Assembly: GCA_964394475.1 (NCBI GenBank)
Contig: CAYMXZ010000001.1
Location: 4,480 to 68,479, forward strand
Direction: 5' to 3'
DNA: 64,000 bases
Origin: an uncultured Caldithrix sp.
GTDB taxonomy: Bacteria > Calditrichota > Calditrichia > RBG-13-44-9
Within the stretch, counting starts at the first letter, position 1; every line of letters starts with the position of its first letter. This document shows positions 49,850 through 53,121 of this stretch, in pieces. The notes beneath the pieces are model-generated. The model was not told the DNA's origin. It made no database searches and saw only the letters and a program-made list of their open reading frames with translations. A program made the position numbers and the translations under genes.

Positions 49850-50025
49850 TTATAAAAAATCTATTTTGTTCTTCTCAAGTGTAAAATTGAAAGGTACGGA
49901 ACATTCCTGAAAAGTGAAAGGTTAATAATTCGGTATTTTAAGAATATTACGGATTAATTGATGGATTTCCTCTCAAATTTTTATGTAAATTTTACATCAA
50001 AAATAATTGCAAGGGTGAATCTTTA

Positions 50026-53000
50026 ATGAAATTAATAAAATTTTTGCTCATCATCTTGACCATAATGCTATTAACTAACAGTGCCTACTCACAGTTTGGG
50101 AAGAATAAGATTCAATATAAAAATTTTGAATGGTATTATATTCAAAGTAAGCATTTTGATGTTTATTATTATCCAGGGGCTGAAAAACTGGCTGAGTTTA
50201 CGGCAGAAGTGGCCGAAGATGCCTATGAACAACTCAAGCGAGATTTTTCATATGAGGTGAAAGAGCGCCTGGTTTTTATCGTTTATAGATCTCATAATGA
50301 TTGGCAGCAAACCAATGTGGTTTTGAGTTACCTGGAAGAAGGCATCGGTGGAGTAACTGAGTTATATAAAAATCGAATTGTCGTTCCCTTCGAAGGTTCC
50401 TATGCCCAGTTCCGCCATGTGATTCATCACGAATTAGTCCATGGGGTAATGAATGATTTACTGTATGGCGGATCGGTTCAATCTTTAGTGATGGGAGAAG
50501 TGGTACCGGTCCCTTCATGGGTCGCTGAAGGATTATCAGAATTTCAATCGACCGGCTGGAATACCAATACGGATATGATTGTTCGTGATGCGGTATTATC
50601 TAATTATATCCCTTCCATTCAATATTTAGAATATTTTCTGGTTTACCAGGGAGGGAATTCAGTTTTTCGATATATTGCAGAAACATACGGGCGGGAAAAA
50701 ATTGGTGAAATATTATTGAAAGCCCGTGGAAATATTGGTTTTCAGCAGATTTTAGTCTCGAGCATTGGTTTGGACTATGAGGGTTTGACAGAAAAATGGC
50801 ATCGATATTTGCAAAAAAATTATGCCCCGGAGATTACCAACCGCCAGATTCCGAAGGAGTTCAGTGAGCAATTAACCAATCATAAGAAATTAAACAATTT
50901 TTTAAATCTCAGTCCGGCCATAGCTCCACAGGGAGATAAGATCGCCTATATTTCCGATCGATCTGGCTTTCAAAACATTTATCTGATGTCCGCCATTGAT
51001 GGGAAAGAAATAAAAGTACTGGTGAAAGGGGAGAGGTCAGAAAGTTTTGAGGAACTCCATTTTTTGCGGCCGGGTATGAGTTTTTCTCCTGACGGAAAAA
51101 AGTTAGCCTTCACGGCAAAGTCAGGCCCATGGGATGCGATTTATATAGTGGATGTGAAAAGTGGTAAGACCGAAAAACATGTTATAAAATTAGATGGTGC
51201 TTTCACAGCCTCCTGGTCACCGGATGGAGATAAAATTGCCTTTGTGGGAAATTTGAATGAAAAGAGTGATATCTTCATTTTCAATTTAAAAACCAGACAG
51301 TATAGCCAGCTGACCAATGATGTTTTCACTGATGACCAACCCTCCTGGTCTCCGGATGGTCGTTATATCGCTTTTGTTTCTGACCGAGGAGCGTATCTCT
51401 CAGATAAGGATTTACCTTCCGACTTTCGCATGCATGAATATGATTATGAATTTCGTGATGTGTACTTGATTGATGTGAATAGTGGAGAAATCATTCGTTG
51501 CACCAATACTCCCTGGGAGGAGGCGTATCCTATTTTCTCTCCAGATGGGAAAAAACTGGCATATACCTCTGATGAAAGTGGCATCTTTAATATTTATCTG
51601 CAGGATTTACAAACCGGTGAGTATTATCCGGTGACTAATATTCAATCTGGCGTTCTGCAGATCAATTGGGACAAAGAGGCCAATAAATTAGTTTACACCA
51701 CTTTTTTCCAGGGCGGTTTTGATATTTATCTTATTAATAATCCATTAAAATTAGCACCACAGAAACTGGAACTTACTCAATTTGCGCGGGATATGCGAAG
51801 TGATAAACCCCCTATCTATTCTCGAAAATGGGAACCGGAGATAAAAGAAACAGCAGAAGAAGATAAAAGACCTCAAGAAATGAAGGGTGAACAACCAGCC
51901 GATTACAGCCGTTACGTTTTTGGAAGCTACCGTCCCCGACCGGAAAGAAAAGATCCAAAAGAAATCGAAATGCCTGATTTTAAGGTGAAGGATGAATTCG
52001 GCAACTATCGTTCCCGAAAATATAAGATAAAATTTTCTCCAGATATTGTGACCGGGACTGCCGGTTACAACACTTTTTTTGGCTTTGAAGGATATACTTC
52101 TTTTGCCTTCAGTGATCTATTGGGAGATCATCAGATTTTTGTTAATGCGGCCTTATGGGCCGATCTGCGAAACAGTAATTTTGCGTTGATGTATTATTTC
52201 CTGAAGCGACGATTGAATTTAGGATTCGGCGGATTTCATCTGGTCTATTTGCTTTCTGACGGCTTTTATATTTTTCGTTATCGAAATTATGGGGTAAATT
52301 TTTTAGCTTCCTATCCCCTCACCAGATTCAACCGCTTCGATTTATTTTTCATCTGGTATAACGTCAATTTAGAATATCTGGATTTTATTATTCCGACCAC
52401 AAAAATCAGTGCCATCTTACCTGAAATTCAATATGTGCACGATAATGTATTATGGGGTGTTCGCTGGGGAGTATATTCCCCGGTCAGCGGATCCCGTTAT
52501 TATGTTTCCATGCGCCTCAGTCCCAAGTTTAGTGACACGAATCTGGATTTCAGAACATTCAGTGCAGATTATCGGCGCTACTTTATGCTCAGCCCTCAGT
52601 ACCAACTGGCTTTTCGAACAACTTTTGGTGCCAGTTTCGGAACCGATGCTCAACAATTTTTCGTGGGTGGAATGGATAACTGGATCAACCAGAAATACCG
52701 TATGGGGAAAAGAATAAGCAACATTAAGGATGTTTTTTTCTCTGAATTCATTACCCCATTACGTGGTGCCTATTATTATGAAAGAACGGGTAACCGCTTC
52801 TTTTTAGTCAATGCTGAGTTTCGTTTTCCACTGATAAAGTATATGCAATTAGGTTTTCCACCTGTCAGTTTCTTTAATATCAGTGGCGTGGTCTTTTATG
52901 ATATCGGAGCGGCCTGGGATCAGGAGGATTCCCGCTGGTGGAGCCTTGATAATTTTCAGGGCATGGCCAATGGCAAATTTCGCGACCTGATTAGTGGTTA

Positions 53001-53121
53001 TGGAATTGGCGCTCGAATTTATTTCTTCGGCTTTATGGTGCGATATGATATCGCCTGGCCGTATGATTTTGATAGAAGCTCAAGACCGATTCATTATATT
53101 TCGTTGGGTTTAAATTTCTAA
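50026..53121 (+). CDS. Large secreted/outer-membrane protein: N-terminal HExxH (MA-clan-like) domain + TolB-type WD40-like beta-propeller repeats + C-terminal probable Omp85/BamA-like beta-barrel
   Basis: The signal peptide is MKLIKFLLIILTIMLLTNSAYSQ. The HExxH region is ..HVIHHELVHGVMND...VAEGLSEF (HExxH + E). PD40-like repeats follow (..SPDGKKLAFTAKSG.., ..SWSPDGDKIAFVGN.., ..SPDGRYIAFVSDRG.., ..SPDGKKLAYTSDESG..). The C-terminal ~400 aa are rich in amphipathic beta strands and end ..YISLGLNF. The protein is 1031 aa. Confidence 0.55.
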   Translation: MKLIKFLLIILTIMLLTNSAYSQFGKNKIQYKNFEWYYIQSKHFDVYYYPGAEKLAEFTAEVAEDAYEQLKRDFSYEVKERLVFIVYRSHNDWQQTNVVLSYLEEGIGGVTELYKNRIVVPFEGSYAQFRHVIHHELVHGVMNDLLYGGSVQSLVMGEVVPVPSWVAEGLSEFQSTGWNTNTDMIVRDAVLSNYIPSIQYLEYFLVYQGGNSVFRYIAETYGREKIGEILLKARGNIGFQQILVSSIGLDYEGLTEKWHRYLQKNYAPEITNRQIPKEFSEQLTNHKKLNNFLNLSPAIAPQGDKIAYISDRSGFQNIYLMSAIDGKEIKVLVKGERSESFEELHFLRPGMSFSPDGKKLAFTAKSGPWDAIYIVDVKSGKTEKHVIKLDGAFTASWSPDGDKIAFVGNLNEKSDIFIFNLKTRQYSQLTNDVFTDDQPSWSPDGRYIAFVSDRGAYLSDKDLPSDFRMHEYDYEFRDVYLIDVNSGEIIRCTNTPWEEAYPIFSPDGKKLAYTSDESGIFNIYLQDLQTGEYYPVTNIQSGVLQINWDKEANKLVYTTFFQGGFDIYLINNPLKLAPQKLELTQFARDMRSDKPPIYSRKWEPEIKETAEEDKRPQEMKGEQPADYSRYVFGSYRPRPERKDPKEIEMPDFKVKDEFGNYRSRKYKIKFSPDIVTGTAGYNTFFGFEGYTSFAFSDLLGDHQIFVNAALWADLRNSNFALMYYFLKRRLNLGFGGFHLVYLLSDGFYIFRYRNYGVNFLASYPLTRFNRFDLFFIWYNVNLEYLDFIIPTTKISAILPEIQYVHDNVLWGVRWGVYSPVSGSRYYVSMRLSPKFSDTNLDFRTFSADYRRYFMLSPQYQLAFRTTFGASFGTDAQQFFVGGMDNWINQKYRMGKRISNIKDVFFSEFITPLRGAYYYERTGNRFFLVNAEFRFPLIKYMQLGFPPVSFFNISGVVFYDIGAAWDQEDSRWWSLDNFQGMANGKFRDLISGYGIGARIYFFGFMVRYDIAWPYDFDRSSRPIHYISLGLNF

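Follow-up and report, generated by a model that had tools for sequence, protein, structure and literature searches.

The protein encoded at positions 50026-53121 consists of a signal peptide, a gluzincin peptidase, a six-bladed propeller, a disordered linker and an Omp85 barrel, all within one polypeptide. Its gene lies in the window analysed here, a stretch of 64,000 nucleotides from an uncultured Caldithrix sp., and a search for paralogues within these 64 kb returned none. The overall parts were identified by Pfam, NCBIfam and PDB sequence matches together with AlphaFold models, whose pLDDT is 79.8 for the full-length chain and 82.3 for the N-terminal 295 residues. The original prediction had placed the open reading frame at exactly this position and length, with a signal peptide followed by three domains; every part is present and all three domain assignments hold. 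Neither of the two observations named beforehand as speaking against it, a C-terminus that is not a barrel and an implausible metal site in the HExxH region, was made. We propose that the protein is a periplasmic zinc endopeptidase tethered to the outer membrane, which may act in processing or quality control of envelope proteins and whose barrel would be functional, a reading to which we give about an even chance. The main features are as follows.

50026..53121, forward strand: open reading frame of 1031 aa, ATG start
50026..50091, forward strand: Sec-type signal peptide, aa 1-22 (MKLIKFLLIILTIMLLTNSAYS), read off the sequence
50092..50838, forward strand: gluzincin (clan MA) zinc-metallopeptidase domain, aa 23-271
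50893..51750, forward strand: PD40/TolB-type beta-propeller with six blades, aa 290-575
51751..52041, forward strand: Lys/Glu/Pro/Arg-rich linker, aa 576-672, assigned from composition and pLDDT
52042..53118, forward strand: Omp85-type outer-membrane beta-barrel with 16 strands, aa 673-1031

The full-length homologues, at 47-97% identity, number more than 100, and full-length relatives are present in at least 591 species genomes from Calditrichota, KSB1, Ignavibacteriota, Marinimicrobia and Bacteroidota, so that by these counts the open reading frame is a genuine gene, far beyond chance. The peptidase domain alone retrieves about 700 clusters at 50% identity (E <= 1e-30). The domain combination had at first been taken to match no recognised characterised family. 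It was catalogued in 2014, when Heinz & Lithgow defined the 'WD40-like Omp85' subfamily (PMC4104836); the other half of the claim stands, in that our literature search found no experimental work on WD40-like Omp85 proteins or Peptidase_MA_2, and no experimentally characterised member. Table S3 of that study records barrel, TolB and aminopeptidase matches for each WD40-like member, the first entry being Caldithrix abyssi H1XQ58 (UniRef100_H1XQ58, WP_006929601.1). The main text discusses the propeller alone, as a BamA-BamB fusion, and the peptidase match is found only in the supplementary table. Across residues 20-1031 our protein shares 48% identity with H1XQ58, and it has the same N-terminal aminopeptidase-like HExxH domain, TolB-like propeller and BamA/TamA-like barrel, likewise without POTRA domains. 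By identity and domain content it is therefore a member of the WD40-like subfamily, with no difference in architecture and from another Calditrichota lineage. Further members are catalogued in the same study (PMC4104836), which also reports several paralogues per genome next to canonical BamA, an arrangement that we see at loci L018 and L043.

The first 22 residues show n-, h- and c-regions and an A-x-S cleavage site, and cleavage is predicted ahead of Q23. No lipobox Cys was found on reading the signal peptide. Residues 2-20 are modelled as a helix in the full-length AlphaFold prediction.

The mature chain begins with the peptidase domain, in which a beta-sheet subdomain is followed by a helical subdomain. 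Pfam Peptidase_MA_2 matches aa 63-263 with 42.7 bits (cut-off 32.4). Conservation was assessed in an alignment of 58 homologues, termed A1, and in a second set of 109 diverged full-length relatives, and three motifs of the domain stand out.

50350..50364, forward strand: G109-V-T111-E112-L motif, 23-26 residues N-terminal of HExxH
50428..50442, forward strand: HExxH zinc-binding/catalytic motif, H135-E136-L-V-H139, from conservation
50527..50529, forward strand: E168, predicted third zinc ligand, from conservation

A gluzincin-like HELVHG...E region had been predicted, and we find it as H135-E-L-V-H139, with G directly after H139, and E168, which sits 29 residues past H139 as is usual for gluzincins. 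H135, E136, H139 and E168 do not vary in A1, nor does E172; the diverged relatives keep H135, H139 and E168 in 108/109 sequences each and E136 and E172 in all 109, while R117 and Y207 are each retained in 107-109 of the 109. Further upstream, G109, T111 and E112 are unvaried in A1 and present in 108/109, 99/109 and 106/109 diverged relatives, respectively. Residues 110-112 are modelled as a strand, and we suggest G109-V-T111-E112-L as a candidate substrate-binding edge strand. Searches of PDB sequences, with the single sequence and with a 58-sequence profile, matched propellers only and no barrel or peptidase, so that fold comparison was needed for these two domains. The closest folds of the peptidase domain are M9 collagenase and M30 lugdulysin. 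With an HExxH motif, a downstream Glu as third ligand and a thermolysin-like fold, the domain belongs to the gluzincins of clan MA(E). An M1 aminopeptidase was considered and rejected: GVTEL stands where the GxMEN exopeptidase motif of M1 is expected, the domain of about 250 aa lacks flanking M1 domains, and in the fold comparison M1 structures come after M9 and M30.

The propeller has six blades of TolB type, where at least four PD40/TolB-type blades had been predicted. It matches the TolB equivalog TIGR02800 of NCBIfam at propeller positions only, with 162.5 bits against a cut-off of 343.15, and a Pfam scan of the full protein detected no TolB N-terminal domain. A true TolB is rejected on both counts, and the name 'biopolymer transporter Tol', under which homologues appear in databases, is an over-annotation judging from the extent and score of this match. 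TolB is also soluble, whereas our protein is anchored in the membrane. A more distant relationship was proposed in 2025 for outer-membrane proteins with TolB-like periplasmic domains, described as candidate TolB ancestors (PMC12204202). If our protein belonged to such an 'OMP-TolB-like' lineage ancestral to TolB, it could be a component of envelope tethering or lipid homeostasis whose propeller binds a peptidoglycan-associated protein of Pal/OmpA type or a component of Mla; the genes mlaE and mlaF do lie within a few bases downstream of the homologous gene in 15 loci of the Caldithrix clade. However, only that clade shows the linkage, which this window and most loci lack, the TIGR02800 match stays below cut-off and without the TolB N-terminal domain, and the conserved peptidase site would be left unexplained. 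The proteins of PMC12204202, which may be a different family, moreover carry a Rossmann-like domain rather than a peptidase. We consider this role very unlikely.

The 97-residue linker between propeller and barrel contains 13 Lys, 12 Glu, 11 Pro and 10 Arg and is the least conserved stretch of A1. Its core (aa 608-646) has pLDDT values below 50 and is predicted to be disordered. The linker fills the place that POTRA domains occupy in other Omp85 proteins, and no POTRA domain was matched by Pfam up to an E-value of 10. Omp85 superfamily membership holds despite this absence, since Heinz & Lithgow accept POTRA-less subfamilies (PMC4104836).

The barrel itself is modelled with 16 beta-strands between aa 674 and 1029, and its nearest fold matches are BamA barrels. 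Pfam Omp85 (PF01103) scores 28.6 bits (cut-off 24) on the last 381 residues alone; neither the full protein nor a 481-residue C-terminal fragment including the linker was matched. Detection with PF01103 is thus borderline and depends on context, which is probably the reason for the inconsistent database names of homologues. A homologue search with the barrel only returned mostly short metagenomic fragments, among them entries from Balneolaceae, Ignavibacteriaceae and Chitinispirillaceae named 'BamA/TamA family'. The model and the PF01103 score bear out the Omp85-type barrel that had been thought probable, and the chain does end on an aromatic residue, F1031 of the beta-signal ...SLGLNF; the beta-rich region, estimated at about 400 aa, is shorter at about 360 aa. 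Two further motifs were located by conservation.

52756..52767, forward strand: loop-6 motif P911-L-R913-G914
52894..52908, forward strand: F957-Y-D959-I-G961 on strand 13

Two motifs, (V/I)RG(Y/F) in loop 6 and (F/Y)xDxG on strand 13, have been defined for Omp85 proteins after the structures of BamA and FhaC. P911-L-R913-G914, which falls inside a 52-residue loop linking strands 11 and 12, we take to be the counterpart of the former, with A915 in the position of the aromatic residue; F957-Y-D959-I-G961 is presumably the counterpart of the latter, which docks loop 6. The loop-6 motif is unvaried in A1, and 105/109 and 106/109 diverged relatives keep R913 and G914. D959 and G961 are likewise unvaried in A1, where F957 is at least 90% conserved, and the three residues are kept in 107, 107 and 100 of the 109 diverged relatives, respectively. 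A GxGxGxR strand motif is also kept in the barrel. With peptidase-site and barrel-motif residues retained in 100-109 of 109 relatives, conservation argues for a working enzyme joined to a working Omp85 barrel, and not for a degenerate fusion.

The same barrel motifs (loop-6 RG, FxDxG and the GxGxGxR strand) and the proximity to BamA barrels would also suit a protein that mainly assembles or inserts outer-membrane proteins, as in the BamA-BamB fusion hypothesis of PMC4104836. The propeller would then replace both POTRA domains and BamB, and the peptidase-like domain would bind rather than cleave. Strand 1, which is of low confidence in the model (pLDDT <50 at aa 677-680), may speculatively fit a weak lateral seam. 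The near-invariance of E136 and of the three zinc ligands is, however, hard to explain without catalysis, POTRA domains for substrate hand-over are missing, and several paralogues exist per genome beside canonical BamA. We consider a role mainly as an assembly factor improbable. BamA itself is rejected, as NCBIfam matches include no BamA model and none of the five POTRA domains that define BamA is present.

The original prediction left the protein either surface-exposed or periplasmic. In the 16-strand register of the AlphaFold model, loops 6 and 7 lie on one side of the barrel, whereas strand 1 has its N-terminus on the other; these two loops (52 and 24 residues) are the exceptions among otherwise short extracellular loops. 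Extracellular loop 6 is entered from strand 11, to which strand 1 would run parallel, and the linker should therefore leave the barrel on the periplasmic side. From this strand parity and from the precedent of PlpD, whose N-terminal enzyme domain was experimentally shown to stay periplasmic (PMC11116518), we infer that a periplasmic placement is better supported than surface exposure.

Members of the Calditrichota are peptide fermenters, and a protease that exports itself, its barrel translocating peptidase and propeller in a manner resembling type V or two-partner secretion, could digest external protein for nutrition. The largely disordered linker of about 95 aa is long enough to thread through the barrel, and the nearest peptidase folds, the collagenases and lugdulysin, are secreted enzymes, which also counts against the periplasmic model. 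Heinz & Lithgow raised such a possibility for Omp85 proteins that bear enzymes (PMC4104836). Yet the strand register puts the linker on the periplasmic side, and a passenger of about 550 residues including a closed six-bladed propeller would have to cross a barrel with conserved lumen-filling loop-6 motifs. PlpD, the prototype of the idea, turned out to be periplasmic (PMC11116518). An M6 protease encoded in the same window carries a T9SS sorting domain, which our protein lacks; the organism thus appears to send at least one protease along a dedicated export route. We count this protease in support of the periplasmic model and regard self-export as unlikely.

Under the periplasmic model, the protein would first be exported by Sec, after which BAM would insert its barrel into the outer membrane, leaving peptidase and propeller flexibly tethered just beneath the membrane. 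There the zinc endopeptidase may act on polypeptides of the envelope, such as unfolded or stalled outer-membrane proteins or lipoproteins, with the propeller as a binding platform for substrate or partner and the barrel as a functional Omp85 module beyond a mere anchor. The result would be a quality-control or processing protease of BepA or DegP type built into an Omp85 protein. A bolder version is a self-contained quality-control machine, in which the barrel, its loop-6 and lateral-gate apparatus being intact, captures beta-strands of misassembled outer-membrane proteins and feeds them to its own tethered endopeptidase while the propeller holds the substrate. This version is doubtful; if true, a single polypeptide would do the work of BamA, BamB and BepA, in phyla that differ from Proteobacteria in their BAM accessory factors, and the protein might also stand for the lineage that gave rise to TolB.

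The gene neighbourhood was compared across homologue loci. In the window, the gene is preceded by GDPD and followed by RadA, both housekeeping genes, and its neighbours are common only to close relatives (at least 62% identity), except for a RadA-like gene, found after the homologue at loci L013, L053 and L064 as well. A search for a family-wide operon partner by synteny across these loci found none. Recurrent neighbours are clade-specific, namely mlaEF, DUF4296, a glycogen debranching enzyme and RNase R. The adjacency of mlaEF was counted in favour of the periplasmic model as a link to the envelope; its confinement to one clade and the lack of a family-wide partner were counted against the proposed mechanism. 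A perfect palindrome (7+1+7) occupies positions 49983-49997, 29 bp 5' of the start codon. As the two closest loci do not conserve it, we did not take it for an operator. Promoter and terminator scans gave nothing exceeding shuffled expectation.

To our knowledge, the Omp85 proteins studied so far serve protein insertion or translocation, and PlpD shows that the scaffold can serve other ends as well. Here, a large family across the sampled phyla of the FCB group has kept both a catalytic zinc site and functional Omp85 motifs. Once known, the role of a protease-bearing Omp85 protein would widen the picture of outer-membrane maintenance beyond Proteobacteria. Our contribution is a clean, well-modelled example with conservation statistics, not a new kind of system.

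Among known systems, BamA and TamA share the barrel and have POTRA domains, whereas the N-terminal half of our protein consists of an enzyme and a propeller, and most of its extracellular loops are short. Its peptidase is only 11-14% identical to the catalytic domains of M9 collagenase, M30 hyicolysin/lugdulysin and M1 enzymes, and it lacks the N-terminal beta and C-terminal ARM domains of M1 as well as the activator domain of M9. PlpD, an Omp85 protein of the patatin-like type, also carries an N-terminal hydrolase domain on an Omp85 barrel (PMC11116518). Where our protein has a zinc peptidase, a propeller and a disordered linker, PlpD combines a patatin lipase with a single POTRA domain, and it forms homodimers. 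A functional analogy is offered by BepA, an M48 metalloprotease with a TPR domain that docks on BAM in outer-membrane-protein quality control (PMC8423444, PMC13478230), and which likewise places a periplasmic zinc protease and an interaction domain beside an Omp85 barrel. BepA is not homologous, having an M48 rather than a collagenase/M1-like fold; it is soluble, separate from BamA and bound to it non-covalently, whereas protease and barrel form a single polypeptide in the protein described here.

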